A stretch of 64,000 nt of DNA. It comes from Clostridia bacterium (lineage in GTDB: Bacteria > Bacillota > Clostridia > UMGS1883). How positions within the stretch are numbered: the stretch's first letter is position 1; the number at the start of each line of letters is the position of its first letter. The stretch spans positions 7,338 to 71,337 of the forward strand of contig JAZRFC010000081.1 of the NCBI GenBank assembly GCA_045661145.1, in the 5' to 3' direction. Below are positions 39,740 to 56,709 of the stretch, piece by piece. The position numbers and the translations under genes are program-made. Below the pieces are notes generated by a model. The model did not search any database, was not told the DNA's origin, and saw only the letters and a list, made by a program, of their open reading frames with translations.

Positions 39740-39754
39740 GAAAAAATTTAAAAA

Positions 39755-39768: not shown

Positions 39769-39770
39769 TA

Positions 39771-39799: not shown

Positions 39800-39800
39800 G

Positions 39801-39814: not shown

Positions 39815-39856
39815 TAAGGATAATAGAAACAGCTTACATGAAAGGAAAGATAAAAA

Positions 39857-41968: not shown

Positions 41969-41996
41969 TGAAAAAATTGCCGATAAACTTTTAGGA

Positions 41997-42257
41997 GTGC
42001 TTGATGAGGCGATAAACGACAAAAAACAATTCTACCGATATATCGTAAAAGAGAAGAACGGTTCAGACAGCGGAGAAGAGGAGCGTATATTCGGTAAAAT
42101 GGATATGCAGGCACTCAATAATGCCATAAAGGCACTTGACTCCCTGACCGAAATAAAAAAAGTCATAACAGGAGAAACATCCCGTACGGAAACAAACGGA
42201 AAAGAAGAACAGGAAACGGGAGTAGTAATACTTCCCGAAGTGGAGGAAGATGAATGA
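41997..42257 (+). CDS. hypothetical small acidic protein
   Basis: 86 aa ORF between terL and portal. GTG start is uncertain; the end overlaps the portal ATG. Confidence 0.4.
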   Translation: MLDEAINDKKQFYRYIVKEKNGSDSGEEERIFGKMDMQALNNAIKALDSLTEIKKVITGETSRTETNGKEEQETGVVILPEVEEDE

Positions 42258-43894
42258 AATTAACTGAATTTTTAAAGGAAAAAGAAACCGCGTCCTTAAG
42301 GCGGAAAATAGGAAAAGAGGAAATTGCCGTTGCCGCAGGAGTCTTGCGTGATTACAAAAACTCCAAATCGTCTTTGGAGGGAAGAATTATCGAGGATGAA
42401 CAATGGTGGAGATTAAGGCATTGGGAAACTTTTGGAAAGGAGCAGGATAAAGGTAAAACGAAAAGCGTCAGTGCGTGGCTTTTTAACACTATTACAAGTA
42501 AACACGCCGATGCAATGGACTCCTTTCCTGATGCAAGCGTCCTTCCAAGGGCAAGAGATGACGAAGAGGAGGCAAAGCTTCTTTCAGGGATTTTGCCTGC
42601 CCTTATGGAACATAACAATTTCGAAGAAATCTATTCAAACAATTGGTGGTACAAGCTGAAGCACGGATGCTGTGCCTATGGAGTTTTCTGGAACAGCGAG
42701 GCGGAAAACGGCTTAGGTGACATACAGATTAAGAAGATTGACCTTCTTAATATTTTCTGGGAGCCGGGCGTAAACGATATACAAAAAAGCAGAAACCTTT
42801 TTATTGTTGATTTAAAGGATTCGGATGTTCTGGAGAGCGAATACCCCTCTCTCCGCGGAAAGAATCTCGGCAGTGCAATTGATGTAAAGCAGTACATATA
42901 TGACGATACAGTAGATGTATCAAATAAGGTGCTGGTAGTTGATTGGTACTATAAGCTCCGTAATTCCGACGGTAAAACAGTTCTTCATTACTGCAAATTT
43001 GTAGGGGACAATGTACTTTTTGCCTCAGAAAATGAAGAAGAATACAAGGATTGCGGATGGTATGACCACGGCGAATATCCCATAGTCCTTGACAGCCTTT
43101 TTCCCGAGGAGGGAACTCCCGTGGGTTTTGGCTTTGTAGCTGTCACGAAAAATCCGCAGATGTACATTGATAAGCTTAATGATGTTATTTTAGATAATGC
43201 TCTTATGGCGGCAAAACCCAGATATTTTGCTAAAATCTCCGCCGGGGTGAATGAACAAGAATTTTTAGATTGGTCAAGACCTATTGTTCACGTGGAGGGA
43301 GATATAAACGAGGAAAGACTCCGCCCCATTGGTGTCAGTCAGCTCCCTCCTGCCTGCACAAATATCCTGCAGATGAAGATAAACGAACTAAAGGAAACAA
43401 GCTCTAACAGCGACTTTAACCGTGGCAGCGCAGGAGGCGGAGTAACCGCAGCATCAGCCATTGCGGCACTTCAGGAAGCAGGCAATAAAATGAGCCGTGA
43501 TATGCTCAAGGCAACTTACAGGGCATACACCACAATAAATTATTTGTGCATAGAGCTGATTCGTCAGTTCTATACGGAAACAAGGTGTTTTCGCATAACA
43601 ACGGCAGACGGCGGATACAGTTTTTCCGATTACAGTAATAAAAATCTTAAGGCAGTTAAAAACGGGGACAGCCTCTACCGCAAGCCGGTTTTCGATATTG
43701 CGGTGAAAACGCAGAAAAAGAGTCCATACACAAGACTTGCACAGAATGAACTTGCAAAGGAGCTTTTCAGATTGGGGTTTTTCAATCCCCAAAATTCTGC
43801 ATGTGCATTGGCGGCACTTGAAATAATGGACTTTGAGGGTAAACGAGCCGTGGAAGAAAAAATAAGGGAACTTTCACAGAATGAAAGGGTGTAA
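42254..43894 (+). CDS. portal protein
   Basis: 546 aa, position directly after terL and before scaffold and MCP. Size and alpha/beta composition fit a portal. No database check was possible. Confidence 0.75.
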   Translation: MKLTEFLKEKETASLRRKIGKEEIAVAAGVLRDYKNSKSSLEGRIIEDEQWWRLRHWETFGKEQDKGKTKSVSAWLFNTITSKHADAMDSFPDASVLPRARDDEEEAKLLSGILPALMEHNNFEEIYSNNWWYKLKHGCCAYGVFWNSEAENGLGDIQIKKIDLLNIFWEPGVNDIQKSRNLFIVDLKDSDVLESEYPSLRGKNLGSAIDVKQYIYDDTVDVSNKVLVVDWYYKLRNSDGKTVLHYCKFVGDNVLFASENEEEYKDCGWYDHGEYPIVLDSLFPEEGTPVGFGFVAVTKNPQMYIDKLNDVILDNALMAAKPRYFAKISAGVNEQEFLDWSRPIVHVEGDINEERLRPIGVSQLPPACTNILQMKINELKETSSNSDFNRGSAGGGVTAASAIAALQEAGNKMSRDMLKATYRAYTTINYLCIELIRQFYTETRCFRITTADGGYSFSDYSNKNLKAVKNGDSLYRKPVFDIAVKTQKKSPYTRLAQNELAKELFRLGFFNPQNSACALAALEIMDFEGKRAVEEKIRELSQNERV

Positions 43895-43898
43895 AAAT

Positions 43899-44612
43899 AT
43901 GAAGAAAAATGATAAAAAGGATATTATCTCTGCCGAAAGCGCGCAGGCAGAGGGAAATATAAATGCTGAAAAAACTGCGGAAGTCAGCAATCCGCAAACG
44001 GGCGATGAAAAAAGCTTTGCCGCCGGAAGCACAAGGGACAAGGAAAAAGAATTTGATGCCCTCATTGAAAACGAATACAAGGAACAGTTTTCAAAAAAGG
44101 TGCAGAAAATCATCAGCAAAAGACTCAGGGAGGTGAAAAATTTGAAGGAAGAAAATATGAGGAACGCAGAAAACAAGGAAGAAATTCTAAGAAGACTTGC
44201 TCTGGAAAACAACTTCCTTAAGAAGCGTCACGAGAATGAGCTTCAGCTTATGAAGCTTCGTGGCGAGGCGCAGAAACTCAGAAAGCAAGCGGCAGAAACC
44301 AAGGAGGTTTATCCCGAATTTGACTTTGAAAAGGAGATAAAAAATCCTGAATTTATGAGACTTCTCAAGCTTGGTGTAGGTGTTAAAAACGCATACGAGG
44401 TTGCAAATATCGATGCAATCCTTGAAAACAACACAAAAGCTGCGGAAAAAAAGGTCGTTGATTCAATCCGTCTTAAGGGTAACAGACCCGTTGAAAACGG
44501 AAGTGAGGGTGCATCGGGCATTCTTCTTTCTGGCAATGCATCCAAGCTTTCCAGAAAGGAAAGATCAGAGCTTGCAAGAAGAGCTGCCAAGGGCGAAAGA
44601 ATCAGCCTTTAA
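43899..44612 (+). CDS. capsid scaffolding protein
   Basis: About 237 aa, highly charged (K/E-rich) helical protein between the portal and major capsid genes. Confidence 0.7.
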   Translation: MKKNDKKDIISAESAQAEGNINAEKTAEVSNPQTGDEKSFAAGSTRDKEKEFDALIENEYKEQFSKKVQKIISKRLREVKNLKEENMRNAENKEEILRRLALENNFLKKRHENELQLMKLRGEAQKLRKQAAETKEVYPEFDFEKEIKNPEFMRLLKLGVGVKNAYEVANIDAILENNTKAAEKKVVDSIRLKGNRPVENGSEGASGILLSGNASKLSRKERSELARRAAKGERISL

Positions 44613-44640
44613 AAACTATAAAAAAATGGAGGACTAATTA

Positions 44641-45666
44641 ATGTATAAGTTTAATTTGCAGCATTTTGCTGCAGGCGATGTTGTTAATACGACAGCAGGC
44701 ATTACAAATGCCAATACGGGAGAAAACACTCCCTATAACGGAGACGGCGGTCTTTCGGGTGAAATGAAGATTTACTACTCCGACTATCTTATTGATATGG
44801 CGGAACCCAAGCTGGTCCATGACCAGTTCGGTCAGAAGTGCCCTATCCCGCAAAAAGGCGGTAAGACAATTGAATTTCGCAAGTACGACCCTCTTCCCAA
44901 GATGACAACTCCTCTTATGGAGGGCGTTACACCTGAAGGCCAGAAGCTTGATATGAAGACAGTATCTGCAGAGGTTAAGCAGTTCGGCGGTTTCATTGAG
45001 CTTTCCGATATTCTTTTGCTTACAGCCATTGACAATAATCTTGTTCAGGCTACAAAGCTTCTCGGCGGTCAGGCAGGCAGAACTCTTGACACTATTACAA
45101 GAGAGGTTCTTGCGGGCGGTACAAACGTACAGTTTGCAGAAGGTCAGGTTGACAGCCGTGATGCTCTTGTGGGTGGTCAGGAAGAAGGCAACCACTACCT
45201 TACCGTTGATGCGATAAGACGTGCGGTAAGATACCTTAAGAAGATGAATGCCGAAACAATCAACGGCAGTTACGTGGGTATTATTCATCCCGATGCTTCT
45301 TATGACCTTATGAGCGACCCCAAGTGGATAAATGTAAAGACTTACTCCGACCCCGAGGGTATCTATCAGGGAGAAATCGGTAAGATTGAAAATGTCCGCT
45401 TTGTGGAAACCTCCGAAGCAAAGATTTTCGAGGGTGAGGGAAAAGACGGTGTTGATGTGTACGCAACCCTTATCATCGGCGATAATGCTTATGGCACAAC
45501 CGAAATTTCCGGCGGCGGTCTTCAGCATATCGTCAAGCAGCTTGGCTCTGCAGGTACGTCAGACCCTCTCAACCAGCGTGCAACCGCAGGCTGGAAGGCA
45601 ACCAAGGCGGCTGTAAGACTTGTTGAACCCTATATGGTTCGTATCGAAACAGCCTCAAGCTTCTGA
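44641..45666 (+). CDS. major capsid protein (HK97 fold; resembles the N4-gp56-type family from memory)
   Basis: 341 aa. N-terminal (M)YKFNLQHFA motif typical of this MCP family. Strong SD, strongest codon bias in the cluster, hairpin directly downstream. Confidence 0.8.
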   Translation: MYKFNLQHFAAGDVVNTTAGITNANTGENTPYNGDGGLSGEMKIYYSDYLIDMAEPKLVHDQFGQKCPIPQKGGKTIEFRKYDPLPKMTTPLMEGVTPEGQKLDMKTVSAEVKQFGGFIELSDILLLTAIDNNLVQATKLLGGQAGRTLDTITREVLAGGTNVQFAEGQVDSRDALVGGQEEGNHYLTVDAIRRAVRYLKKMNAETINGSYVGIIHPDASYDLMSDPKWINVKTYSDPEGIYQGEIGKIENVRFVETSEAKIFEGEGKDGVDVYATLIIGDNAYGTTEISGGGLQHIVKQLGSAGTSDPLNQRATAGWKATKAAVRLVEPYMVRIETASSF

Positions 45667-45685
45667 TAAAGAACAAAATGAAAAT

Positions 45686-45712
45686 CCATCAGTCGGCAGG
45701 ACCGACTGATGG
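45686..45712 (+). other. 11-bp perfect stem-loop after the capsid gene (no U-tract)
   Basis: CCATCAGTCGG-CAGGA-CCGACTGATGG. Confidence 0.7.
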
Positions 45713-45737
45713 AACATTTGAAAGGAGTAAATAAATT

Positions 45738-46001
45738 ATGGCGACAAATAAAGAAAAAAAGGTTGACGGAAACACATTGGTGGAAATTGAGCTTTTCCGT
45801 GATAACAAGGACTACAAGGACGATGTGTTCGTAGCGGTAAACGGCGAAAGCTGTGTTATTGCACGCGGTAAGAAGGTAATGGTGAAAAAGAAGTTTGCCG
45901 ATGTAATTGCACAGTCTATGAGTCAGGATGTAAAGACAGCAAGACTTATGGATAATAAGTCCGATGAATTTTTCACGGAAGCCACCGCAAGAAACATATA
46001 A
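45738..46001 (+). CDS. hypothetical small virion-associated protein
   Basis: 87 aa with a strong SD (AAAGGAG), between MCP and the collagen-like protein. Confidence 0.55.
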   Translation: MATNKEKKVDGNTLVEIELFRDNKDYKDDVFVAVNGESCVIARGKKVMVKKKFADVIAQSMSQDVKTARLMDNKSDEFFTEATARNI

Positions 46002-46016
46002 AAGGAGGGCTTTTAT

Positions 46017-47138
46017 ATGGCGGGATTCAATTTAGGAAGAATCATAGGTGAAAAGGGCGAAAAGGGCGAAATGGGACCCAAGGGCGATACAGGTGCAAAG
46101 GGTGAAAGAGGCGAAAAAGGAGATAACGGAAAGGACGGATTGACACCCATTTTTTCTGTTGGAAAAGTAGAAACCCTGCTTCCGGGAGAGGATGCATCAG
46201 TAGAAATAGATGTAGCAAATCCTGCCTCCCCTCTACTTAACTTCGGAATTCCTGCAGGAAAGGACGGAAAAGACTCTCTTGGAGATATGATTAAGGCAGT
46301 TTATGATAAAAAAGGTGTAAATACGGATGTTTATGAATATGCCGAAAAACTTTTTGAAAAATGTCTTGAAAAAACAGGGGGGAATATGGCAGGCAGCCTT
46401 ATTGCGGCGGAAGCTCCTCTCACAGAAAGAGCCGTGAGAAACATATCCGTAGGAGTAAAGTTGCCCCAGTCAGGTGCAAACGGAGATATATGCATTATCA
46501 CAAAAGACACTTCTGAAAAAAAGCTTGGAGAGTGTCAGGAAGGAAATGCAGTTATATTAAAAGAAAATGGTAAGGATTGCACCTATATCATTGTAGGACT
46601 GAACCGTCATGCAGAGAACAGCGTTACTTTGGTCAGGGAAGAATTGTGCGGACAAAAGGCTTATTATGATTACGGTAACCGCGGAGAATATTTTATGAGT
46701 GATATAGACAGTTATCTGGAATCAATTCATATATCTGTTTTCCCTGACAAAATAAGAAATTCTCTTTTGTCGGTAGAGGTAGAAGGCGGTTGTTATAGAC
46801 ATTGCTTCCTGCTTAGTCAGTCGGATTTTGCGAATATGAGTTATTTTAATACTAAAAATAACAGAATTGCCAAAATCAACGGTAGCGATACAGCCGGCGA
46901 GTATATGACATCCACCTGCAGCAGTATGAAGAAAATAACCACAATTACCGCAACCGGGGATTTCTCAATAGTAGACACTTATGAAAAAAAGATGTTTCGT
47001 CCTGCAATAGTTTTGCCTTCTGAATTTCCCGTGGAAAACACTTCGGCAAGCTCGCGACCGACAATGAAATTGCCTGATGCTGAAAAAGGAATATATGTAT
47101 TTCTTGACGGTGTGTGGAAGGAGTGCAGCGGAGTATGA
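46017..47138 (+). CDS. collagen-like (GXY repeat) fibre protein
   Basis: 373 aa. 10 uninterrupted G-X-Y triplets near the N-terminus (GEKGEKGEMGPKGDTGAKGERGEKGDNGKDG), then a globular C-terminal part. Confidence 0.75.
   Translation: MAGFNLGRIIGEKGEKGEMGPKGDTGAKGERGEKGDNGKDGLTPIFSVGKVETLLPGEDASVEIDVANPASPLLNFGIPAGKDGKDSLGDMIKAVYDKKGVNTDVYEYAEKLFEKCLEKTGGNMAGSLIAAEAPLTERAVRNISVGVKLPQSGANGDICIITKDTSEKKLGECQEGNAVILKENGKDCTYIIVGLNRHAENSVTLVREELCGQKAYYDYGNRGEYFMSDIDSYLESIHISVFPDKIRNSLLSVEVEGGCYRHCFLLSQSDFANMSYFNTKNNRIAKINGSDTAGEYMTSTCSSMKKITTITATGDFSIVDTYEKKMFRPAIVLPSEFPVENTSASSRPTMKLPDAEKGIYVFLDGVWKECSGV
46047..46139 (+). repeat. coding GXY collagen-like triplet repeat
   Basis: Read directly from the translated sequence. 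Confidence 0.9.
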
Positions 47139-47485
47139 CAATAAATACCGTAATAGAGCAGACATTAAAGCTTCATCCCGATTCGATTTCTGATTCAATA
47201 AAGTGTCGTTGGCTCAGCGAACTTGACGGAAAAATTATACGTGAAACCATGCACAAAAATGACTTTACGCCCTATAAATTTCCGGAAGACGGGGAAAGAG
47301 AGCTTGTAGTCAAAGCTCCTTATGATAATATGTATGAACTGTATCTTATAGCAATGAGCGACTTTTTCAGCGGAGAAATGGCAAACTATTCTGCTTCGGC
47401 GGTACTGTTTGAACAGGCTTATCAGGAGTTCAGGAAGAACTATATCCGTAACAATATGCCGCCGCAGTGTAGTTTTGTGATTTGA
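47135..47485 (+). CDS. hypothetical head-tail connector/adaptor-sized protein
   Basis: ATGA overlap with the upstream gene; about 116 aa. The functional call rests on position only. Confidence 0.5.
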   Translation: MTINTVIEQTLKLHPDSISDSIKCRWLSELDGKIIRETMHKNDFTPYKFPEDGERELVVKAPYDNMYELYLIAMSDFFSGEMANYSASAVLFEQAYQEFRKNYIRNNMPPQCSFVI

Positions 47486-47497
47486 GGAGGGGATAAG

Positions 47498-49273
47498 GTG
47501 CATCTTCCAATATTGAAGAGAGAAAACAGGTATAAACGCAGTATAATAAGTTTCGGAGGATTAAACCTGACAAGTGATTATGCTGAAGGAGAACTTATTG
47601 AATGTAACGGTATAACTCATGGTGAATATCCATTTCTTACCCAAAGGAAAAAAAGAGAAAATGAATTCAGATGTGCTTATCCCTCTGCCGTTATTTTTGA
47701 AAAGAAGGAATGTATTGCGGCTGAAGACGGCCTTTACTATGACCGCAAAAAAGTAGGAGAACTTTCTCCGGGTAAAAAACAGATTGCGGTATTGGGAAGT
47801 AAAATACTGGTTTTTCCTGATAAAATGTATTACGATACAGAGAAAAATGAGTTTAAACACCTCAGCGGAGAAGTATACACAAGCGGTACGGTTACATTTA
47901 CCACTAACAGTATTTCTTTAAAGGATGGCTATTATGAGGAAATACGGCAAATGGAAAAGACAGAGTTTCAAAAAGATATCTCTCTTGTAACCTATCGGGA
48001 AGTTGCTGTAAGCAACAGAAAAATAACATTTTCAGGATTCCTGCCTAAATTGCCGGGTGAACTTAGTGCAGAAACAATAATTTTTGAAAAATGTAACCAA
48101 AACCAGTACCGTGTAGTTACAAGTGTCAACTATAATGAAGAAACAGACTGTTATGAAATTATAAATGAACTTGTGACTATAAAAAACTATACGGGAAATC
48201 TTTTTTCACACTTTAAAGTAGGCGATGTCGTGGAAATCAGCGGATGCAAAAATAAGGTTTATAATAACAAGAGTGCGACGGTAGTGTCTAATCGCGGAAC
48301 ATCTCTCATTTTTTCAGAAGGAACATTTTTAGAGGTGAATGAAGATGAGAGCATAACAATAAAGAGGAAGATTCCTGATTTTGTTTCTGTGTGCACCTAT
48401 GAGAACAGACTGTGGGGTTGCGAAGGAAACACCATATACGCATCCGCATTAGGAGATGCAACCTCGTTTTTCACCTATCAAGGAATATCCACCGACAGTT
48501 TTTCCGTTAAATCTAATTCAGCGGGAGATTTTACGGCGTGTGTAAACTATGGAAACAGTTGTTACTTTTTTAAGGAAACCTCCTGTTACAGGCTTTATGG
48601 TAACCGTCCTGCTAATTTTCAGCTTACTGAAAGCTTTGGTGCAGGCATATTAAAAAGCGATGCGAAAAGCATAGTTACAGCAGGTGACAGACTTATATAT
48701 AAAGGAAACGGCGGTATTTACAGCTTTTATGGGGGAAGCCCAACAAGAATTTCTGATAAGCTGGGGAACATAAAAATGAGAAATGCAACAGCAGGGACTG
48801 ACGGAAAGCTTTATTATATAAGTGCTGATACAGAAAACGGTCGGGAAGAATTTATATGGGATATTGAAAAAAATTTCTGGTGTAAATCCGGAATTAAAGG
48901 TGTCAACGGATATGCTTCTTACGGAGAAAATGTTTTCACCTTTAAAGATGAAGGCATAGAAAAAATCTCGGAAAGTACGGATGATAAGGTTTTGTGGAGC
49001 GTAACGCTGTGTCCTTTTGACGAGAAATACTACAAAACAAAAAACTATTCCAGACTTCATTTGAAAACACAGCTCTTTAAGGGTTCTTTTATCAGTGTGG
49101 ATATTAAATATGATGACAGCAAATGGGAAAACATCGGAAGTTTTCATGGTGAAAGCAAGAGGTATCTCAATATTCCCTGTGTGGTAAAAAAATGTCATGA
49201 ATTCAGTATAAGAATTTCAGGAAAAGGAAAGAGTGTGCTGGAGTCGATAGTAAGAGAATACACGGTAAACTGA
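47498..49273 (+). CDS. large virion protein, beta-propeller-like repeats (candidate tail nozzle/stabilisation protein)
   Basis: 591 aa. GTG start 5 nt after GAGGAGGGG. C-terminal half has repeated ..YG/..G..IY..G.. beta-strand-like segments. The function is an inference from size and position. Confidence 0.55.
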   Translation: MHLPILKRENRYKRSIISFGGLNLTSDYAEGELIECNGITHGEYPFLTQRKKRENEFRCAYPSAVIFEKKECIAAEDGLYYDRKKVGELSPGKKQIAVLGSKILVFPDKMYYDTEKNEFKHLSGEVYTSGTVTFTTNSISLKDGYYEEIRQMEKTEFQKDISLVTYREVAVSNRKITFSGFLPKLPGELSAETIIFEKCNQNQYRVVTSVNYNEETDCYEIINELVTIKNYTGNLFSHFKVGDVVEISGCKNKVYNNKSATVVSNRGTSLIFSEGTFLEVNEDESITIKRKIPDFVSVCTYENRLWGCEGNTIYASALGDATSFFTYQGISTDSFSVKSNSAGDFTACVNYGNSCYFFKETSCYRLYGNRPANFQLTESFGAGILKSDAKSIVTAGDRLIYKGNGGIYSFYGGSPTRISDKLGNIKMRNATAGTDGKLYYISADTENGREEFIWDIEKNFWCKSGIKGVNGYASYGENVFTFKDEGIEKISESTDDKVLWSVTLCPFDEKYYKTKNYSRLHLKTQLFKGSFISVDIKYDDSKWENIGSFHGESKRYLNIPCVVKKCHEFSIRISGKGKSVLESIVREYTVN

Positions 49274-49274
49274 G

Positions 49275-49469
49275 GTGATTTTATTGTTTATGAAGCTTGG
49301 TGATATATCAGGAAAAAGTCCGCAGGAAGCAATCTCAGTTATTGAAAGTTATCTCAGAAACAATCAGGAGCTGCTGGAATATATTCTGACTCACCTTGAC
49401 AGTTCAAATATTATTGAAATTGATTTAAGTAAAACAAACATTTATAAGGGGGAGGAAAATGGGTTATAA
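49275..49469 (+). CDS. hypothetical small protein
   Basis: About 60 aa. Start is ambiguous (TTG at 49284 or ATG at 49290). The end overlaps the next gene. Confidence 0.4.
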   Translation: MILLFMKLGDISGKSPQEAISVIESYLRNNQELLEYILTHLDSSNIIEIDLSKTNIYKGEENGL

Positions 49470-50457
49470 CAAAGAAACCGACTATCAATCAAAAATTAAC
49501 GAGGCAGTATCCAAAGGCGATTACGAAAGTGCAGCAAAGTATGAGCAGAGCAGAAATGAAAAGATTGACGGCGAAAATTTAGGCTACGAAAAGACAAATC
49601 GTTATTCGGGCTGGCTTGATAAAACCGACTATTCAAATGTTCTCAGAAAGCAGATGTCATCAGGAGCATCAAAAAATGATGTTTCCGAAACCTTGAAAAA
49701 GCGTATTTCAAAGGCAACCGGAACAGACGGTCTTACTCAATATGCTTACGATGACGTTTATGACCAGGCAATTCGCTACATAATGGAAAAAAGCTCCTAC
49801 GGAGAAAGACCGCAGTATAAAAATTCCTACGAAAGCGAAATTTCAAAGATTTTGGAAAGACTTACGAAAATAAAAGAATTTTCCTACAATCCATATGAAG
49901 ACGAGCTTTATGAATTTTACAAACAGCAGTATCTTCGTGAAGGAAGCAGGGCAATGGAGGATCTGTTGGGCGAGCTTTCCGCTTCTACGGGAGGTATAGC
50001 ATCAAGCTATGCTGTAAGTGCCGCCGCTCAGGCAAGAGAAAACTATAACCACAAGCTTACAGACAAGATTCCCGAGCTTTATGAGGCTGCATATGAACAA
50101 TACCTTGACGGAATTGATACGGATGAAAGCATCTTAAAAATTATTCAGGCATTGTCAGACGGAGAGTACGAAAAATATCTTGACAGTATGAATATTTACA
50201 ACAAAGACAGAGAGCTTTACAACAAGGAGAGAGAACTCTATAACAAGGAAAAAGAATTTGAGTACAAGGTAAATGCTGCCGAAGAGGAAGATGAATATAA
50301 CCGTAATCAGGACATGATTGATACTGCCCTGACGAAGTGGAAGAATTTAGGCTACCTTGATGAAGAAAGTGCAAAAATATTGGGACTTCCGGCAGGACTT
50401 CATACCACTGACTACGACTATAAGAAAGCACAGCAGTACAAAATTTACAGCAGATAA
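49459..50457 (+). CDS. hypothetical helical virion/internal protein with a 9-aa tandem repeat
   Basis: 332 aa, strong SD. YNKDRELYNKERELYNKEKEF is three tandem 27-nt units at about 50187-50265. Confidence 0.6.
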   Translation: MGYNKETDYQSKINEAVSKGDYESAAKYEQSRNEKIDGENLGYEKTNRYSGWLDKTDYSNVLRKQMSSGASKNDVSETLKKRISKATGTDGLTQYAYDDVYDQAIRYIMEKSSYGERPQYKNSYESEISKILERLTKIKEFSYNPYEDELYEFYKQQYLREGSRAMEDLLGELSASTGGIASSYAVSAAAQARENYNHKLTDKIPELYEAAYEQYLDGIDTDESILKIIQALSDGEYEKYLDSMNIYNKDRELYNKERELYNKEKEFEYKVNAAEEEDEYNRNQDMIDTALTKWKNLGYLDEESAKILGLPAGLHTTDYDYKKAQQYKIYSR

Positions 50458-50512
50458 ATCTGTTTAAAACACAAAAAACCCCGTGTGATGCATCCCGAAA
50501 GTAAAAAACTAC

Positions 50513-50541
50513 TTGCACAAATGCGAGTAATCGAGTATAAT
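50513..50541 (+). promoter_or_regulatory. own promoter of nfnAB
   Basis: TTGCAC (50513-50518), 17 nt spacer, TATAAT (50536-50541). Confidence 0.6.
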
Positions 50542-50575
50542 TGAATTTAGATTGTTTATTAAGGGATGAATTTAT

Positions 50576-51418
50576 ATGTACAGAATTGCTGAAAAGACGG
50601 TGCTTAACCCCACCGTTACCAAAATGGTTGTAGAAGCTCCCCTTATTGCGAAGAAGGCGGAACCCGGACAGTTTATAATTTTCAGGGTATCGGAGGATGG
50701 AGAGAGAGTTCCTCTTACAATTGCCGACTATGACCGTGAAAAGGGAACAGTAACTATAATATTTCAGGTAGCAGGTGCATCCACAATGGAGCTTAACGCT
50801 CTTAATGAGGGTGATTTCATCTGTGATTTTGCAGGCCCTCTCGGAACTTCCAGCAAGATTGAAAATCTCAAAAAGGTTTGTGTTGTAGGCGGTGGAGTGG
50901 GATGTGCCATAGCGTACCCCGTTGCAAAGAAGCTTCACGAAAACGGATGTGAAGTACACGTAGTGACAGGCTTCAGAAATAAAGATTTGGTGATTCTGGA
51001 AAAGGAATTTTCTGCGGTGAGCGACATAATGAAAATTATGACCGATGACGGAAGCTACGGCGAAAAAGGTCTTGTCACAAATGCCCTGGAAGAGCTTATA
51101 AATGCAGGCAATGATTACGACGAGGTTATTGCAATCGGACCCCTTGTTATGATGAAATTTGTGTGTCTTACCACAAAAAAATACGGTATCAAAACCACAG
51201 TTTCAATGAATCCCATTATGGTAGACGGAACGGGAATGTGTGGAGGATGCCGTCTTACGGTAGGCGGTGAAACCAAGTTTGCCTGCGTTGACGGTCCTGA
51301 TTTTGACGGACATCAGGTGGACTTTGATGAAGCTATGAAGCGTAATGGAATATACAAGGAATTTGAAGCACATAAAAGAGAAGAAACCTGCAACCTCTTC
51401 AAAAAGGAGGTAATGTGA
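50576..51418 (+). CDS. nfnA: NADH-dependent reduced ferredoxin:NADP+ oxidoreductase subunit A (FAD/[2Fe-2S], PyrK-like)
   Basis: 280 aa. Close recalled similarity along the whole length to Thermotoga NfnA (..ERVPLTIADYD.., ..NPIMVDGTGMCGGCRLTVGGETKFACVDGPDFDGH..). Confidence 0.88.
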   Translation: MYRIAEKTVLNPTVTKMVVEAPLIAKKAEPGQFIIFRVSEDGERVPLTIADYDREKGTVTIIFQVAGASTMELNALNEGDFICDFAGPLGTSSKIENLKKVCVVGGGVGCAIAYPVAKKLHENGCEVHVVTGFRNKDLVILEKEFSAVSDIMKIMTDDGSYGEKGLVTNALEELINAGNDYDEVIAIGPLVMMKFVCLTTKKYGIKTTVSMNPIMVDGTGMCGGCRLTVGGETKFACVDGPDFDGHQVDFDEAMKRNGIYKEFEAHKREETCNLFKKEVM

Positions 51419-51419
51419 T

Positions 51420-52808
51420 ATGACTAATATGAGTCCTAAAAAAAATCCAATGCCTTCTCTTGACCCCAAAGAAAGAAGAACGAACTTCGATGAGGTTGCC
51501 ACGGGATATACCTATGAGATGGCAATAGAAGAGGCGAAAAGATGCTTTGCCTGTAAGCACAAGCCATGCAGGAGCAAGTGCCCCGTTGGAATTGACATTC
51601 CTGCGTTTATTGAAAAACTTGCGGCACAGGACATAAAGGGTGCATATGAAATTATTTCAGAAAGCAGCACTCTTCCTGCCGTATGCGGAAGAGTGTGTCC
51701 TCAGGAAAGTCAGTGCGAAAGTGCTTGCGTCCGCGGTATTAAAGGTGAGAGTGTGGCAATCGGCAGACTTGAAAGGTTTGTTGCCGATTACTGCAGAGAG
51801 CATTATAAGGAAGAAGCCCAAAAGCCTCAGTTAAATGGCAAAAAGGTGGCTATTATAGGTTCAGGCCCTTCGGGACTTACTGCTGCAGGCGACCTTGCGA
51901 AGCTTGGCTACGAGGTAACGGTTTTTGAAGCACTTCATACTCCGGGTGGTGTTCTTGTTTACGGAATCCCCGAATTCAGACTTCCCAAAACGATTGTCAG
52001 TGAAGAAATTGAAAAGCTTCAGGCTATGGGTGTGAAAATTGAAACCAATGTAATAATCGGTAAAACAATTACCGTTGATGAGCTTTTTGATGATGGATTT
52101 TCCGCAGTTTATATAGCCAGCGGGGCAGGACTCCCAAGCTTTATGAATATAAAGGGAGAGAGTCTTAACGGAGTTTACAGTGCAAACGAATACCTTACCA
52201 GAATAAATCTTATGAAAGCATATCTGCCCGATTCCAAAACGCCCGTTAAAAAGAGTAAGCGCGTTGCAGTAGTAGGCGGCGGAAACGTGGCGATGGATGC
52301 GGCTCGCAGTGCCGTAAGGCTCGGGGCTGAAGCAGTGTACATTATTTATAGAAGAGGTATGGAAGAGCTTCCTGCAAGAAATGAAGAAATCGAGCACGCC
52401 CACGAAGAGGGGGTTATTTTCAGAACTCTGACTGCCCCTGTAGAAATACTCGGCGACGATAATGGAAATGTCAGTGGTATAAGATGTGTCCGTATGGAGC
52501 TTGGAGAACCTGATGAAAGCGGAAGAAGAAGACCGGCTCCGATAGAGGGTAGTGAATATGACCGTGAAGTGGACACTGTAATTATGGCGATAGGAACAAG
52601 TCCCAATCCTCTTATCCGCAGTACTACACCCGGCTTGGAAGTTAACAGCCGTGGCTGTATAGTAACCGACGGAGAAGACGGAAAAACCTCCCGTGAAGGT
52701 GTGTATGCCGGCGGTGATGCAGTTACCGGTGCCGCAACGGTTATACTTGCAATGGGTGCAGGAAAGAGTGCGGCAAAGGCAATTGATAATTATTTAAAAA
52801 ATAAATAA
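51420..52808 (+). CDS. nfnB: NfnB subunit (GltD-like; two [4Fe-4S] + FAD/NADPH)
   Basis: 462 aa. RCFACKHKPC..CPVGIDIP, AVCGRVCPQESQCESACVRG, GSGPSGLTAAGDLAKLGY, GGDAVTGAATVILAMGAGK. Start overlaps the nfnA stop region. Confidence 0.88.
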   Translation: MTNMSPKKNPMPSLDPKERRTNFDEVATGYTYEMAIEEAKRCFACKHKPCRSKCPVGIDIPAFIEKLAAQDIKGAYEIISESSTLPAVCGRVCPQESQCESACVRGIKGESVAIGRLERFVADYCREHYKEEAQKPQLNGKKVAIIGSGPSGLTAAGDLAKLGYEVTVFEALHTPGGVLVYGIPEFRLPKTIVSEEIEKLQAMGVKIETNVIIGKTITVDELFDDGFSAVYIASGAGLPSFMNIKGESLNGVYSANEYLTRINLMKAYLPDSKTPVKKSKRVAVVGGGNVAMDAARSAVRLGAEAVYIIYRRGMEELPARNEEIEHAHEEGVIFRTLTAPVEILGDDNGNVSGIRCVRMELGEPDESGRRRPAPIEGSEYDREVDTVIMAIGTSPNPLIRSTTPGLEVNSRGCIVTDGEDGKTSREGVYAGGDAVTGAATVILAMGAGKSAAKAIDNYLKNK

Positions 52809-52839
52809 AAAACTTAAAAAGTGTAACGACTTTCGACAA

Positions 52840-52865
52840 CCCCCGTGATATATATATCACGGGGG
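52840..52865 (+). terminator. GC-rich hairpin after nfnB (weak U-tract), nested in an 11-bp outer inverted repeat (52816-52826 / 52883-52893)
   Basis: CCCCCGTGATAT/ATATCACGGGGG followed by TTTGTGTTTGTGGG. Outer repeat is AAAAAGTGTAA / TTACACTTTTT. Confidence 0.6.
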
Positions 52866-52912
52866 TTTGTGTTTGTGGGTTATTACACTTTTTATTTGTA
52901 AAAGGAGAAAAT

Positions 52913-53956
52913 ATGAAGGATATAGTAATTAAAGTCAGCGGACAGTTTATTTCAAAAAACAGCAAAAATGCAGGTGTGGCAGGAGATGCAAATTCCTGCA
53001 GTATAACATTCTGCTTTGACAGCAGTTGGACAGGGTTTTCCAAAAGAGTTCTCTGGCGTGACAGCAAGGGAGAAAACCTTACAAGCGTAATCCTTGTTCC
53101 CGATATAGAAAACCAAAGTGAGTATAAGACCTCTATTCCACCCTGCATCACAAAAACGCAAGGTTGGTGTACATTCACAGTTGAGGGATATTTTGAATCA
53201 AACCCCGAAATTGTAAATAAGTCTGTAAGTGACAGTCTTTTCGTGGGTTATTCCGACCTTAGCGACGAAATCGTTCCCATAACTCCAAGCGAGGCAATGC
53301 AGCTTCAAAGTGAATTTGAAGCCCTGATGCCCCGTGTGAAAAGCCTGATGGAGGAAACGCAAAAAAGTATAACTTCCTACTGTGAGAATCACAATGTCTG
53401 GGAGGATTACAACAGTGCCACTCTTTATAACCCAGGAAACAAGGTTTTCTATAAAGGCTGCGCTTATGTCTGCATCAAGGAAAATCAGGGAGTATCTCCC
53501 GAAAACAGTGATTTCTGGCAGATAATTGCAGAACGTGGACAGCGGGGACAGAAAGGAAATCAGGGACCGCAGGGTATTCAGGGCGACAGAGGTGAAAAAG
53601 GCGAGAAGGGTGACAAAGGCGACAAAGGAGAAAAGGGCGACAGAGGTGACAAGGGAGATAAAGGTATAAACGGAAGTGTCGTTCCTGCTAACGGTTTTTA
53701 TTCCTTTAGCGTAGATGAAAACGGAGATTTGTGGCTGTATTATCCCGATTCTGGAAATAAACCCGAAGCAACACTTAACGAAAACGGTGAACTTATTCTG
53801 ACTGTTGATGGAGAAACCGATTACTCCTTTAATGTCGGCAAGGTTAAAGGGGAAAAAGGTGATTTCCCCCAAAAAGGAGTAGATTACTGGACAGAAAACG
53901 ATAAAGCTGAAATAAAAGCCTATGTAAAAGATGCTATTTTAGGAGGTGCGTGGTAA
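52913..53956 (+). CDS. tail fibre-like protein with collagen-like GXY repeat and CBM5/12-like motif
   Basis: 347 aa. 15 G-X-Y triplets (GQRGQKGNQGPQGIQGDRGEKGEKGDKGDKGEKGDRGDKGDKGING). YNPGNKVFYKGCAYVCIKENQGVSPENSDFWQ resembles a carbohydrate-binding CBM5/12 signature. Confidence 0.7.
   Translation: MKDIVIKVSGQFISKNSKNAGVAGDANSCSITFCFDSSWTGFSKRVLWRDSKGENLTSVILVPDIENQSEYKTSIPPCITKTQGWCTFTVEGYFESNPEIVNKSVSDSLFVGYSDLSDEIVPITPSEAMQLQSEFEALMPRVKSLMEETQKSITSYCENHNVWEDYNSATLYNPGNKVFYKGCAYVCIKENQGVSPENSDFWQIIAERGQRGQKGNQGPQGIQGDRGEKGEKGDKGDKGEKGDRGDKGDKGINGSVVPANGFYSFSVDENGDLWLYYPDSGNKPEATLNENGELILTVDGETDYSFNVGKVKGEKGDFPQKGVDYWTENDKAEIKAYVKDAILGGAW
53537..53674 (+). repeat. coding GXY collagen-like triplet repeat
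   Basis: Read directly from the translated sequence. Confidence 0.9.
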
Positions 53957-54729
53957 TGAGCGTAAATGAGAAAATGACTGCTATTGCAGATAATATCCGC
54001 AGTAAGACAGGCGGTACAGAAGCACTTACACTTGATGATATGGCAAGCGGTGTAAATGAAGTATATGAGGCAGGAAAAAAAGAGGAGTATAACGAGTTTT
54101 GGGATTCTTTTCAGAATAACGGAAGCAGACTTGACTATAGACGGGCTTTTGCAGGAAATAGTTGGAGTCCCAGTATCTTTAAACCTAAATACCCCATAAA
54201 ACCTACAAATGCAGAACAAATGTTTTATTTATCGACTTATCTAACTTGTGACATTACAGAGGTTTCAGATATTGATTTTTCATCATCTACAAATTTACTC
54301 CAAACTTTTCAAAATTTTTACGGAAATAGGATTGGAGTTTTGGACACAAGAAAAGCAACAAATATTACTAATATGGTCGTTAATTGTTCCCGCTTAGTAA
54401 CGATTGATAAAATTATCGTAGGGGAAAATTTACCTTCCACGTTAAGCTTTAATAACGATTCACGTCTAGAAAATGTCACCATAGAGGGTATCCTTGTAAG
54501 AAGTGTAAATGCAGCAGCGTGTCCTCTTACAGTGGCGAGTATGAAAAGTATTATATCTGCACTGAAAGACTATGCAGGAACAGACAGCGAATACACTTAC
54601 ACAGGAACCTTTAAGGCATCAGCTTTCAACGCCCTTGAATTCGAAGGTGCAACGGCAGAATATAACGGGGTAGCTTGCACGTGGGCGGAACTGATAGATA
54701 ATAAAAAGTGGAATCTTACATTGGCATAA
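53956..54729 (+). CDS. hypothetical fibre/receptor-binding-associated protein (leucine-rich-repeat-like segments)
   Basis: TAATG overlap with the upstream fibre gene, SD AGGAGGTG. About 257 aa. Confidence 0.55.
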   Translation: MSVNEKMTAIADNIRSKTGGTEALTLDDMASGVNEVYEAGKKEEYNEFWDSFQNNGSRLDYRRAFAGNSWSPSIFKPKYPIKPTNAEQMFYLSTYLTCDITEVSDIDFSSSTNLLQTFQNFYGNRIGVLDTRKATNITNMVVNCSRLVTIDKIIVGENLPSTLSFNNDSRLENVTIEGILVRSVNAAACPLTVASMKSIISALKDYAGTDSEYTYTGTFKASAFNALEFEGATAEYNGVACTWAELIDNKKWNLTLA

Positions 54730-54740
54730 GGAGTGGTGAA

Positions 54741-55019
54741 ATGTATAAACGAATTAAAACAAAAATAGAGCACGCAACCTTTAAAGCGCGAACAGATGCC
54801 GACGGAAATATATTGTCTTATCGTATCAGTCCGAATGAGGGGTACAAGCTTCACGAAGTAACACTTGATGAACCTGTTGTTGACGAAAACGGAAACGAGA
54901 CAGGAGAAAAGAAACTTGGATTTACGAAATCGTATGTAACGGCAGGTGTCGGATACGATTTTGAGAAAAATGAAAGAGAAATTTATGCGGAGGAGGTAAA
55001 AAATGAACACAACAATTAA
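54741..55019 (+). CDS. hypothetical small protein
   Basis: 92 aa, ATG behind AAGGAGTGGTG, precedes the holin. Confidence 0.5.
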   Translation: MYKRIKTKIEHATFKARTDADGNILSYRISPNEGYKLHEVTLDEPVVDENGNETGEKKLGFTKSYVTAGVGYDFEKNEREIYAEEVKNEHNN

Positions 55020-55431
55020 AAATGCCCTACTTGCCCTGTGTGCAGGTATGGGAAGCGTTTTTGCGGAAGCCTTTGGCGGTTGGGACTCTTTTTTAAAGGC
55101 ATTGGTTCTTTTTATGATTGTAGATTACATAACGGGAATGACCGTTGCCCTTGTTTTTCACAAGTCTGAAAAAACAAAGAGCGGAGGTGCTTCTAGTGCA
55201 GTAGGGTTTAAAGGTATTGTAAAAAAAATATGTATCTTTTTCCTTGTAGCATTAGCAGTAAGAGTTGACCTTATCACCGGAACAAGCTATGTGCGTAATG
55301 CTACAATATTCTTTTTCTTAGGCAACGAGGGGCTTAGTGTCATTGAAAATATCGGGCGTATGGGTGTTAAGTATCCTGCTTTTTTAAAGAAAGCATTGGA
55401 AACCTTAAAAGAGAAAAGCGAAGAAACATAA
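55003..55431 (+). CDS. holin (phage_holin_4 / TcdE-like family)
   Basis: 142 aa, three TM segments, charged C-terminus, directly upstream of the amidase. Confidence 0.8.
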   Translation: MNTTIKNALLALCAGMGSVFAEAFGGWDSFLKALVLFMIVDYITGMTVALVFHKSEKTKSGGASSAVGFKGIVKKICIFFLVALAVRVDLITGTSYVRNATIFFFLGNEGLSVIENIGRMGVKYPAFLKKALETLKEKSEET

Positions 55432-55474
55432 TTTTTAAAATTAAACATATTATGTACAAGGAAGGATTGATAAG

Positions 55475-56212
55475 ATGAGTGAGTTTAAAAAATATAATAT
55501 AGAAGAATTTGAAAAGTACATAACCTCGCTTAATGTTTCACGCGGAATAAAGCTTGTTCAGCTTCACCATACCTATATTCCCGGCTATAAGCAGTTTACA
55601 GGGGACAATCATATTCAACTGCAGACGGGAATGAGAAATTACCACATAAACACCAACGGCTGGTCAGACATAGCACAGCATTTTACGATTTTCCCTGATG
55701 GTGCAATAGTGACGGGAAGAAGTATGGAAATGATTCCTGCAGGCATAAAGGGGGGAAACGCAGGTGCTATATGTATAGAATGCGTAGGAAATTTTGATAA
55801 GTGCGGAGATGTGATGAGAAAAGAACAGAAAGATGCAATCGTGAGTGCGGTAAAAATCCTTATGGATAAATTCTCTCTTCAGCCTGAAAATGCAATTGTA
55901 TACCACGGCTGGTGGACAGCGTCAGGAAAGAAATTGGGTGATTACACAAAAGGAAAATCCGCCAAAACCTGCCCTGGTACAAATTTCTTCGGTGGAAATA
56001 CGAGAAAGGATTTTGAGGAGAATTTGCTACCGCTTATTGTCGGATGCAGAAAGAAAATGCTGGAAACAGCTAATGATATTACATGGGAGCTAAATCATAC
56101 ATATTTTCCTATTGATGATGTTGATAGATTTAAGAAAATTCTTGATGAAGCAAAAAAAAATAACAGCCCTCTATATTGGGGCTATTATAAGCTTGTGAAC
56201 AGAATAAAATAA
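55475..56212 (+). CDS. N-acetylmuramoyl-L-alanine amidase (Amidase_2/PGRP type endolysin)
   Basis: 245 aa. VQLHHTY.., NGWSDIAQHFTIFPDG.., ICIECVGNFD motifs. Confidence 0.8.
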   Translation: MSEFKKYNIEEFEKYITSLNVSRGIKLVQLHHTYIPGYKQFTGDNHIQLQTGMRNYHINTNGWSDIAQHFTIFPDGAIVTGRSMEMIPAGIKGGNAGAICIECVGNFDKCGDVMRKEQKDAIVSAVKILMDKFSLQPENAIVYHGWWTASGKKLGDYTKGKSAKTCPGTNFFGGNTRKDFEENLLPLIVGCRKKMLETANDITWELNHTYFPIDDVDRFKKILDEAKKNNSPLYWGYYKLVNRIK

Positions 56213-56417: not shown

Positions 56418-56482
56418 ATGGCGCACCATAAGAAAACAGCATCTACTTAAAAGCAGATGCTGTTTTCTTATGGTGCGCCATC
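56418..56482. terminator. 28-bp perfect inverted repeat: a bidirectional terminator core whose outer arms include the last 12 nt of tRNA-Lys
   Basis: GATGGCGCACCATAAGAAAACAGCATCT - ACTTAAAAGC - AGATGCTGTTTTCTTATGGTGCGCCATC. Confidence 0.85.
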
Positions 56483-56546
56483 AGGGACTCGAACCCTGGA
56501 CACCCTGATTAAGAGTCAGGTGCTCTACCAACTGAGCTAATGGCAC
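56471..56546 (-). tRNA. tRNA-Lys (anticodon CTT), CCA encoded
   Basis: Minus strand GTGCCATTAGCTCAGTTGGTAGAGCACCTGACTCTTAATCAGGGTGTCCAGGGTTCGAGTCCCTGATGGCGCACCA folds as a cloverleaf. Confidence 0.9.
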
Positions 56547-56551
56547 AAATA

Positions 56552-56627
56552 TGGAGCTGCCCAGCAGATTCGAACTGCCGACCTCTTCCTTACCAAGGAA
56601 GTGCTCTGCCAACTGAGCTAGGGCAGC
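56552..56627 (-). tRNA. tRNA-Thr (anticodon GGT), CCA encoded
   Basis: Minus strand GCTGCCCTAGCTCAGTTGGCAGAGCACTTCCTTGGTAAGGAAGAGGTCGGCAGTTCGAATCTGCTGGGCAGCTCCA. Confidence 0.9.
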
Positions 56628-56632
56628 AAAAT

Positions 56633-56709
56633 TGGCGACCCGGAAGGGGCTCGAACCCTCGACCTCCAGCGTGACAGGCTGGCGTTCTAACCAACTGAAC
56701 TACCGGGCC
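56633..56709 (-). tRNA. tRNA-Asp (anticodon GTC), CCA encoded
   Basis: Minus strand GGCCCGGTAGTTCAGTTGGTTAGAACGCCAGCCTGTCACGCTGGAGGTCGAGGGTTCGAGCCCCTTCCGGGTCGCCA. Confidence 0.9.

Follow-up and report, generated by a model that had tools for sequence, protein, structure and literature searches.

A host nfnAB redox operon at the seam of a probable domesticated podovirus-derived element in gut Clostridia

Introduction

The DNA analysed here, called the window, is a stretch of 64,000 nucleotides (nt) of contig JAZRFC010000081.1 from a Clostridia bacterium (assembly GCA_045661145.1). In the middle of an array of phage virion genes, and on the same strand, it carries nfnA and nfnB, the apparent genes of an electron-bifurcating ferredoxin:NADP oxidoreductase. 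How did an operon of core redox metabolism come to lie there, and is it the cargo of a phage or a piece of the host? An earlier note on this DNA offered two answers, a large auxiliary metabolic moron of a phage or a core operon of the host that has become part of a domesticated phage locus. The first was contradicted by the lack of integrase and replication genes, the lack of a compositional break and an evolution in step with the chromosome. The second gained support from relatives with contiguous phage genes and no nfnAB, from proteins of the NfnI type and from host-like evolution. With a probability of about 0.7, positions 39068–56212 represent a vertically inherited, domesticated podovirus-derived element of the gene transfer agent (GTA)/PBSX type, with the host nfnAB operon lodged at the seam of its two operons.

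Results

nfnAB occupies the boundary between two phage-type operons

The element spans about 17 kb, nfnAB included (Table 1). nfnAB stands exactly at the boundary between the head, packaging and tail operon (operon I) and the fibre and lysis operon (operon II), flanked by the gene of a 332-amino-acid (aa) protein (g332) and the collagen-like fibre gene (col2). The earlier description of nfnAB as nested inside the virion gene array holds in that the pair lies within the element; more precisely, the site is the operon I/II boundary, taken up by a plain hairpin spacer in relatives devoid of nfnAB. The left neighbour, ending at 50457, had been regarded as an internal-virion-type gene. The gene is present, but the corresponding PHROG match belongs to the 591-aa gene further upstream, and scans of the window proteins against Pfam, PHROG and NCBIfam revealed no family match for the 332-aa protein.

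Relatives were identified through homologues of the 332-aa protein (183 clusters), which led to contigs and to GTDB species-representative genomes. All 31 informative GTDB species-representative loci came from metagenome-assembled genomes (MAGs) labelled Clostridia or Oscillospiraceae and obtained from human, goat, sheep and roe-deer gut. In 27 of these loci, nfnAB was flanked by the 332-aa gene and the fibre gene, whereas four lacked it, and the same seam arrangement was found in the further contigs L001, L002, L005, L052, L053 and L056. Counted by assemblies, nfnAB was at the same place in 34 others, and with so many independent assemblies showing it, a chimeric contig is excluded. The gene array was colinear in every related locus long enough to show the order.

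In the nfn-less loci L017, L018, L030, L037 and L054/L055, g332 adjoins col2 with the hairpin spacer alone between them. The existence of such relatives, in which the phage genes are contiguous, means that the regions 39–50.4 kb and 52.9–56.2 kb are one element, and the possibility raised earlier that two independent prophage remnants merely flank nfnAB was thereby dismissed.

A different layout was observed in loci L046–L051, which were found through NfnB homologues of 78–79% identity. Their order is host genes (YtxC, DUF6873), nfnAB, collagen-like fibre, three small open reading frames (ORFs), amidase and host genes, and operon I is not upstream of nfnAB. They share with the window the promoter (TTGCCA-17-TATAAT), the 3' motif and the CCCCCGTGAT hairpin. 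YtxC and DUF6873 were not found near nfnAB outside loci of this type and gave no clue to an ancestral host locus.

In distant relatives, the 332-aa homologue is followed by a giant ORF of 2414–3020 aa (L039, 11341–18585; L065, 10775–19837; also L066), and IMG/VR contigs of 23–42 kb are among these relatives. The L065 product (3020 aa) matched phrog_22978 and had no PDB match, and the L039 product (2414 aa) had no Pfam or PHROG match; that the giant ORF encodes a virion RNA polymerase is a guess. The giant ORF occupies the position of the seam and nfnAB in the family of the window, suggesting the loss of a giant virion gene from this spot in the course of domestication.

Purifying selection and divergence in step with the host

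Substitution rates were calculated for the window against the close relatives L001, L010 and L011. The ratio of nonsynonymous to synonymous substitution rates (dN/dS) was 0.015–0.05 for TerL, portal and capsid and 0.01–0.25 across all measurable element genes, next to 0.03–0.06 for NfnA/B and 0.02–0.12 for the flanking host genes. The synonymous rate (dS) of the element (~0.4–0.8) was similar to that of the flanks (0.42–0.54), and all of the roughly 20 element ORFs were intact across dozens of species. Operon II of L046–L051 was likewise under purifying selection (dN/dS 0.04–0.27). The comparison of GC content with the flanking phage genes, proposed in the earlier note, revealed no break in GC or in GC at third codon positions (GC3) among host, element and nfnAB.

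The distances of NfnA+NfnB were correlated with those of TerL+portal+capsid (Mantel r = 0.84, reached in 0 of 2000 permutations), and the two trees recovered the same major clades. The maximum p-distance was 0.27 for the phage core and 0.28 for NfnAB, the phage core being as slow as the redox enzyme. The right flank was conserved within clades, with one flank type common to the deep lineages L014, L033 and L036. Family scans detected no integrase, excisionase or replication gene among the ORFs of 39068–56212, every one of which was accounted for as repressor, small ORF, virion/lysis gene or nfnAB.

The dN/dS values, dS relative to the flanks, the shared right flanks and the 31 species-level genomes conform to the purifying selection and vertical descent by which GTAs are generally recognised, as does the presence of head, packaging, tail and lysis genes with none for replication, integration or excision. 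The pattern appears to be that of a domesticated, vertically inherited element and not of a decaying remnant or a roaming phage.

One block departs from these rates. Between the collagen/DUF6273 gene and g332 (46017–50457), the aa identity to L001, L010 and L011 is 53–77%, with dS >1, as against ~96% identity for TerL, portal, capsid, nfnAB and operon II; the three relatives are mutually 87–97% identical across the matching block. The confinement of high divergence to this block points to a recombinational swap of the tail module.

Phage and virome sequences related to the element

A megablast of the 17-kb element against GenBank phages gave no match, and at the protein level only unverified faecal-virome scaffolds were related to it. 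One of them, L044, is a distant contiguous relative and runs straight into host genes. The IMG/VR provirus call L058 (10,606 bp) comprises operon I alone, from the first small ORF (s1) to g332, and the calls L058–L062 end exactly at the end of the 332-aa gene, operon II beyond nfnAB having been missed.

Three 'UNVERIFIED Bacteriophage sp.' scaffolds from a Mexican faecal virome (L041–L043; MT836119, MT835804 and MT835785) encode nfnAB homologues of 64–70% identity. Their neighbouring genes match none of the element, their terminators are unrelated, the 17-nt motif found behind nfnB in the window is absent, and genes of host type follow just downstream of nfnB, for instance an ORF resembling inorganic pyrophosphatase in L042. 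With host neighbours only, these scaffolds were rejected as phage-borne nfnAB, i.e., as an auxiliary metabolic gene (AMG), and considered bacterial DNA in preparations of virus-like particles. A capsid-forming phage satellite (cf-PICI) was also considered for the element and rejected, as an integrase or replication gene is lacking while fibre, holin and amidase are present.

By sequence, the enzyme belongs to the NfnI type

The ORFs and family matches confirmed the 280-aa NfnA and the 462-aa NfnB at the place and on the strand given in the earlier note; the gap between the genes is 1 nt. NfnA matched NCBIfam PRK06222 (412 bits) and the Pfam domains DHODB_Fe-S_bind and NAD_binding_1, and NfnB matched TIGR01316 (592 bits), Fer4_20 and Pyr_redox_2. 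Compared with all PDB sequences, NfnB reached 572 bits with Thermotoga maritima NfnB (4ylf_B) and 530 with Pyrococcus furiosus NfnI (5jca_L), and lower scores with NfnII/Xfn (5vj7_A, 491 bits) and GltD (275). The respective scores of NfnA were 298 bits with 5jca_S and 267 with 4ylf_A, then 194 with 5vj7_B and 105 with PyrK. Dihydropyrimidine dehydrogenase (DPD) was also below the Nfn enzymes.

The cluster motifs CxxCxxxxCxxxCP and CGRVCPQExQCExxC of NfnB and DGTGMCGxCR...FACVDGP of NfnA were present residue for residue in the PDB alignments, with identical Cys, Glu and Asp positions within these stretches, so the cluster-binding Cys motifs noticed earlier do align with those of solved Nfn enzymes. 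The assignment of the individual cluster ligands follows the published structures. The genes for a PyrK-like small and a GltD-like large subunit are adjacent, and the proteins are nearer to characterised bifurcating Nfn than to the paralogous families (NfnII/Xfn, GltD, DPD and PyrK). T. maritima NfnAB (4YLF) and P. furiosus NfnI (5JCA) have the same two-subunit architecture, domain order and cluster-binding motifs; they differ in genomic context. As far as the sequence can tell, the pair is an NfnI-type NADH-dependent reduced ferredoxin:NADP+ oxidoreductase.

It is very unlikely that the genes encode another PyrK-like/GltD-like two-subunit enzyme with a different reaction, e.g., a sulfide dehydrogenase or an NfnII/Xfn-type enzyme. 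The differing automatic names ('NADPH-dependent glutamate synthase', 'sulfide/dihydroorotate dehydrogenase-like') and the fact that enzyme activity is unreadable from sequence would leave room for it, but T. maritima NfnAB and P. furiosus NfnI score clearly above NfnII (5vj7), GltD and PyrK, and the cluster motifs match those of the bifurcating enzymes, which also speaks against the different GltD/PyrK-family pair kept in mind in the earlier note. No second nfnAB copy was found inside the 64-kb window, and an exact look-up of its NfnB sequence returned no record.

nfnAB was lost repeatedly and operon I was detached or lost in one lineage

A capsid-only tree rooted on L039 was too poorly resolved for the nfn-less loci, and multi-gene trees were used instead. 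The nfn-less loci were nested among those with nfnAB, the monophyly of which was recovered in 0 of 200 bootstraps with either outgroup (L039 or the virome relative L044). The nfn-less locus L054 was sister to the nfnAB-carrying L056 in 200 of 200 bootstraps. The L054 spacer reads from the L056 left junction (…CACCCGCCCCATGATAAAAAAA) straight into the sequence that L056 has behind its nfnB stop codon (…TGTAACGACTTTCGTCAAACCCCGTGATACC…) and the hairpin. The presence of both L056 junctions marks this spacer as a deletion scar, and nfnAB was therefore lost there. The absence of nfnAB from the L017/18/30/37 clade is put down to a second, independent loss, which brings the deletions to at least two in all. 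The L017 and L018 spacers resemble what would arise by recombination between the left half-arm, a partial copy of the hairpin arm in front of nfnA, and the 5' arm of the hairpin itself. The half-arm, in turn, would be a decayed duplicate that arose when the cassette entered upstream of the hairpin.

The NfnAB proteins of L046–L051 nest inside the in-element clade (monophyly of the in-element proteins in 5 of 200 bootstraps). Together with the layout of these loci, this indicates that the head operon was detached or lost and that nfnAB and the lysis operon stayed together.

nfnAB carries its own promoter and terminator

The TTGCAC-17-TATAAT promoter reported in the earlier note is present and was found in the form TTGnnn-17-TATAAT upstream of nfnA in 35 of 35 homologous junctions examined (once with TAAAAT), 31–64 nt before the start codon and amid otherwise divergent sequence. 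It is also kept in the loci without operon I. The region contains 48 promoter-like sites where 40 are expected, and a single promoter or hairpin match is weak evidence for that reason.

The hairpin behind nfnB is present as well and, in the clade of the window, is enclosed by a longer outer stem (52815–52894; −39.9 kcal/mol, z = −6.4). A strong hairpin (−19 to −44 kcal/mol), variable in sequence, lies in each nfnB-col2 spacer and is followed by a T-rich tract and the ribosome-binding site of col2, only 20–45 nt separating the hairpin from this site in every locus; the spacer is too short for an operon II promoter. A hairpin of changed sequence also occurs in the nfn-less spacers, where reading by eye revealed no conserved extended -10. 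In agreement with the earlier observation, no terminator-like site was found on the + strand between 47732 and nfnA. nfnAB thus appears to be a normal housekeeping operon that is self-sufficient in transcription, with a sigma-A-type promoter at its head and an intrinsic terminator at its end.

The half-copy of the hairpin arm at the left junction, also pointed out earlier, exists, but in the window alone its 10-nt match is within chance, being reached or exceeded by 12 of 100 shuffles. It gains support from L005, where the match is 18 nt long and reached by 0 of 100 shuffles, and from the junction logic of L054/L056; an AAACCCC remnant of it recurs in other relatives.

A 17-nt motif (AAGTGTAACGACTTTCG) between the nfnB stop codon and the terminator showed no change across saturated lineages. 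L046 and the L054 deletion scar both retain it, the right end of that deletion lying just before it, and it is missing from several clades with nfnAB and from the nfn-less L017/18/30 clade. No Rfam family scored above chance for the motif or the hairpin, and the 3' end of nfnB showed no excess synonymous-site conservation.

Control region, gene content and borders

In the CI/LexA-like repressor, an Ala-Gly cleavage site (KIAAGQP) is accompanied by the Ser of GDSM and the Lys of LKR. The protein matched TIGR00498 (lexA) in the C-terminal part only, at 105 bits and below the cut-off. Three ACTTACGTAA(AA)-type repeats bracket the operon I promoter and, together with the palindrome, presumably form the operator set of the S24 repressor. 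The capsid protein matched the NCBIfam model TIGR04387 with 321 bits (cut-off 60).

Table 1. Features of the element and its right border; positions refer to the window.
Feature	Position	Strand	Remarks
CI/LexA-like repressor	39068–39664	−	198 aa; HTH_3 and Peptidase_S24; Pfam and PHROG matches
Control region	39723–39818	+	ACTTACGTAAAAAG repeats 39723–39736 and 39755–39768; palindrome ACTTACGTAAAACGTAAG 39801–39818
Operon I promoter	TTGACA (39771)-17-TATACT (39799)	+	divergent from repressor; promoter scan 11/12
Operon I	39857–50457	+	10.6 kb; head, packaging and short-tail genes; PHROG, Pfam and NCBIfam matches
Three small ORFs	from 39857, 40096 and 40296	+	last one a possible TerS
TerL	40547–41968	+	operon I; followed by 86-aa ORF
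Portal	42254–43894	+	operon I
Scaffold-like	43881–44612	+	operon I
N4-gp56-type major capsid protein	44641–45666	+	operon I; followed by 87-aa ORF
Collagen/DUF6273 protein	46017–47138	+	operon I; followed by 123-aa ORF
591-aa 'internal virion protein'-like	47498–49273	+	PHROG match; followed by 64-aa ORF
332-aa protein (g332)	49459–50457	+	last gene of operon I
Left half-copy of terminator 5' arm	50475–50489	+	AAAACCCCGTGTGAT; putative decayed direct repeat flanking the nfnAB cassette
nfnAB promoter	TTGCAC 50513–50518, 17 nt, TATAAT 50536–50541	+	sequence read and promoter scan
nfnA	50576–51418	+	280 aa; small subunit, FAD/NAD(P)-binding domains and [2Fe-2S] cluster
nfnB	51420–52808	+	462 aa; large subunit, two [4Fe-4S] clusters, FAD, NADPH site
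Conserved 17-nt motif, nfnB 3' region	52819–52835	+	AAGTGTAACGACTTTCG; identical in 14 loci
Terminator-type hairpin after nfnB	52838–52867	+	AACCCCCGTGATATATATATCACGGGGGTT; intrinsic-terminator type
Operon II	52913–56212	+	3.3 kb; fibre, holin, amidase
Collagen-like fibre (col2)	52913–53956	+	operon II
259-aa ORF	53950–54729	+	operon II
103-aa ORF	54708–55019	+	operon II
Holin	55003–55431	+	operon II
N-acetylmuramoyl-L-alanine amidase	55475–56212	+	operon II
tRNA-Lys, tRNA-Thr, tRNA-Asp	56471–56709	−	host genes, right border of the element

The left flank, up to 39021, consists of host genes (aminotransferase, methyltransferase, NUDIX, MiaB-like radical SAM, HD phosphohydrolase, GltX and PGA_cap), and so does the right flank past the tRNAs (PHP protein, 2-oxoacid dehydrogenase acyltransferase and AMP-binding enzyme). 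Compared with the window, L001 and L011, the tRNA Lys-Thr-Asp cluster has the opposite orientation in L002, L010 and L012, and in L002 an extra helix-turn-helix (HTH) gene and small ORFs are inserted before the zf-like and PHP genes. Elsewhere in the window, a T-box leader (18773–18981; 97.8 bits, above the gathering score) lies upstream of a 584-aa ORF (19025–20779).

Comparison with gene transfer agents and morons

The closest parallel in organisation is the podovirus-like FpGTA of Faecalibacterium prausnitzii (Borodovich et al., Nat Commun 2026, PMC12946183). Its 10.5-kb operon I encodes a TerS-like ORF, TerL, portal, Prp, an N4-gp56-family capsid protein, a tail nozzle and an abundant terminal protein, and its 5.5-kb operon II, 125 kb away from operon I, encodes fibres, a receptor-binding protein, holin and endolysin (PMC12946183). 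The particles were verified by electron microscopy and proteomics, with capsids of ~40 nm and 8.4–8.9 kb of packaged host DNA (PMC12946183). Like FpGTA, the window element belongs to strictly anaerobic gut Clostridia, has a podovirus-like gene set with no replication or integration genes, an operon I of ~10.5 kb in which a small TerS-like ORF precedes TerL, portal and N4-gp56-family capsid, and a separate module with fibres, holin and endolysin/amidase. The FpGTA capsid protein (RCH50849.1) bears the Prokaryotic Genome Annotation Pipeline (PGAP) name of TIGR04387, the model matched by the capsid protein of the window. A Prp-like ORF follows the portal gene in the in-family relative L053, as in FpGTA, whereas none is recognisable in the window.

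The two systems also differ. The operons of FpGTA are 125 kb apart, whereas those of the window are split by nfnAB alone (2.45 kb), and contiguous as well as split variants exist within the family. An S24 repressor with operators heads the window cluster, none having been reported for FpGTA, and the fibre genes differ, being collagen-like in the window. The particles of FpGTA have been seen, whereas the window element is known from its genes and likened to FpGTA by organisation and capsid family. A portal search of representatives at 50% identity yielded 444 clusters below 1e-30, and ten high-GC-like representatives had no informative names among their members.

GTA-like packaging of 4–7-kb fragments was reported for several uncultured gut Clostridia (HGM11616, QANA01 and Ruminococcus_C callidus), with no gene cluster identified (PMC12946183, supplementary file 3). 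The window element family occurs in similarly labelled MAGs, e.g., L008, 'Clostridia bacterium HGM11516', and could be a producer, which is offered as a lead only.

RcGTA, other alphaproteobacterial GTAs and PBSX of Bacillus subtilis are, like the window element, domesticated structural clusters under purifying selection and vertically inherited. RcGTA is siphovirus-like and PBSX myovirus-like, whereas the window element is podovirus-like with an N4-type capsid. PBSX is controlled by a repressor and inducible by the SOS response. In RcGTA and the alphaproteobacterial GTAs, accessory fibre and lysis genes may also sit at other loci with host genes between them, but the host DNA intervening in the window is a single operon with a traceable insertion, deletion scars and co-divergence. 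The idea voiced earlier that the arrangement is undescribed stands in part: no paper on nfnAB in a phage-derived or GTA-like cluster was found in the literature, but multi-locus GTA 'genomes' interrupted by host genes are an established concept.

With phage morons (lambda bor/lom, the HK97/HK022 insertions), nfnAB shares the form of a promoter-gene-terminator unit between late genes on the same strand, relatives without the insert and a hairpin at the junction, so that it looks like a moron cassette. Morons ride on mobile, infectious phages and usually differ from the carrier in composition. The carrier of nfnAB, in contrast, appears non-mobile and infectious or horizontal movement is not indicated: mobility genes are lacking, and in divergence and composition the element resembles the host. 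What it carries is a core redox operon of 2.2 kb, which has diverged along with the host lineage.

Discussion

The observations are best explained as follows. The element consists of a probably SOS-type autocleavable repressor with presumed operators, operon I and operon II, and has no means to replicate, integrate or excise. nfnAB would have entered once, in a common ancestor of the bacterial clade, at the hairpin spacer between the operons, which may be the one permissive spot in the cluster, and its insertion would have duplicated the 5' arm of the hairpin. Since that entry, nfnAB and the element have been inherited together; later, nfnAB was precisely deleted at least twice, and one lineage was left with nfnAB and operon II and no operon I upstream. 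In uninduced cells, NfnAB would do its normal redox job from its own promoter. On induction, the transcript from the de-repressed operon I promoter would meet no terminator before nfnA and would run through nfnAB to the hairpin, which would have to be read through for the fibre and lysis genes to be expressed. Of this scheme, the gene content, its conservation, the selection, the co-divergence, the deletion scars and the conserved promoter and terminator were observed, whereas particle production, DNA packaging, SOS control, read-through and enzymatic activity are inferred.

Would a mobile phage or a relic account for the locus as well? An active temperate phage, a small podovirus prophage of 17 kb spreading nfnAB horizontally as a moron/AMG cassette of lysogenic conversion, would fit with the promoter and terminator bracketing a cassette on the phage strand, with an S24 repressor and operators resembling a lysogeny switch, and with distant relatives in faecal virome and IMG/VR data. 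It is nevertheless highly improbable, as integrase, excisionase and replication genes are lacking, no GenBank phage matches at the DNA level, the dS of the element equals that of the flanks and right flanks are shared, the composition is that of the host, and NfnAB and the structural genes diverge together throughout the clade; moreover, the IMG/VR provirus calls stop before nfnAB, and the virome scaffold L044 runs into host genes. The missing replication and integration modules, and the fact that nfnAB and operon I can each be lost, could also be read as signs of a decaying defective prophage with no present function and with nfnAB merely inside it. Such an inert remnant is scarcely credible given about 20 intact ORFs in dozens of species, dN/dS of 0.01–0.25 at dS of 0.4 to above 1, and TerL, portal and capsid proteins as slow as NfnAB.

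Another explanation concerns the reason why nfnAB and operon II stay together. Operon II may have no promoter of its own and be transcribed only by read-through of the nfnB terminator, with the nfnAB promoter, the 17-nt motif and the hairpin acting as a gate. Particle release and lysis would in this way be tied to the transcription of the redox operon or to an element-encoded antiterminator/activator recognising the 17-nt motif, and the linkage would be kept by selection rather than by inertia. The 20–45 nt between the hairpin and the ribosome-binding site of col2 in every locus, the position of nfnAB directly upstream of an operon II that is under purifying selection even without operon I, and the identity of the 17-nt motif across saturated lineages, spared by the L054 deletion, all argue for such functional coupling. 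It is, however, unlikely: nfnAB was cleanly lost at least twice with operon II retained, the motif is absent from several nfnAB-carrying clades and from the L017/18/30 clade, the 3' end of nfnB has no excess synonymous conservation, and the adjacency is equally well explained by vertical inheritance.

Several points weigh against the domesticated, vertically inherited element with a lodged host operon. Positional conservation rests on the right chromosomal flank only, and purifying selection by itself would equally be expected of a temperate phage that is successful. The phylogenies were built by simple neighbour joining, with long-branch outgroups as roots. To judge from the repeated clean deletions, nfnAB seems dispensable at this site. 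No operon II promoter was found, which leaves the transcription model incomplete. A scan of GTDB genomes for motifs from the g332 alignment revealed no Faecalibacterium locus, and FpGTA is therefore at most a distant relative of the window element.

The first demonstration of GTAs in gut Firmicutes dates from 2026 and concerns a single genus (PMC12946183). The domesticated element described here would be a second, much broader GTA candidate family, present in no fewer than 35 species-level lineages of uncultured Clostridia from the gut of humans and ruminants. Within this one family, the cluster is found contiguous, split by a single host operon, or with one half detached, and these three states may be a snapshot of the passage from a contiguous phage cluster to a multi-locus GTA 'genome'; the deletion scars give the polarity of the nfnAB losses and make the origin of such 'genomes' traceable. 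The locus is also a warning for annotation, since IMG/VR calls only operon I viral and nfnAB, if read uncritically, would be counted as a viral AMG. The operators, the nfnAB promoter, the hairpin and the 17-nt motif are the targets for deciding between a housekeeping operon that is co-transcribed with the lysis module and one that insulates it. If terminator gating were true, particle release and host lysis would be wired to the transcription of a core redox operon, and this wiring would explain why nfnAB and the lysis operon remained adjacent after the head operon had moved away.

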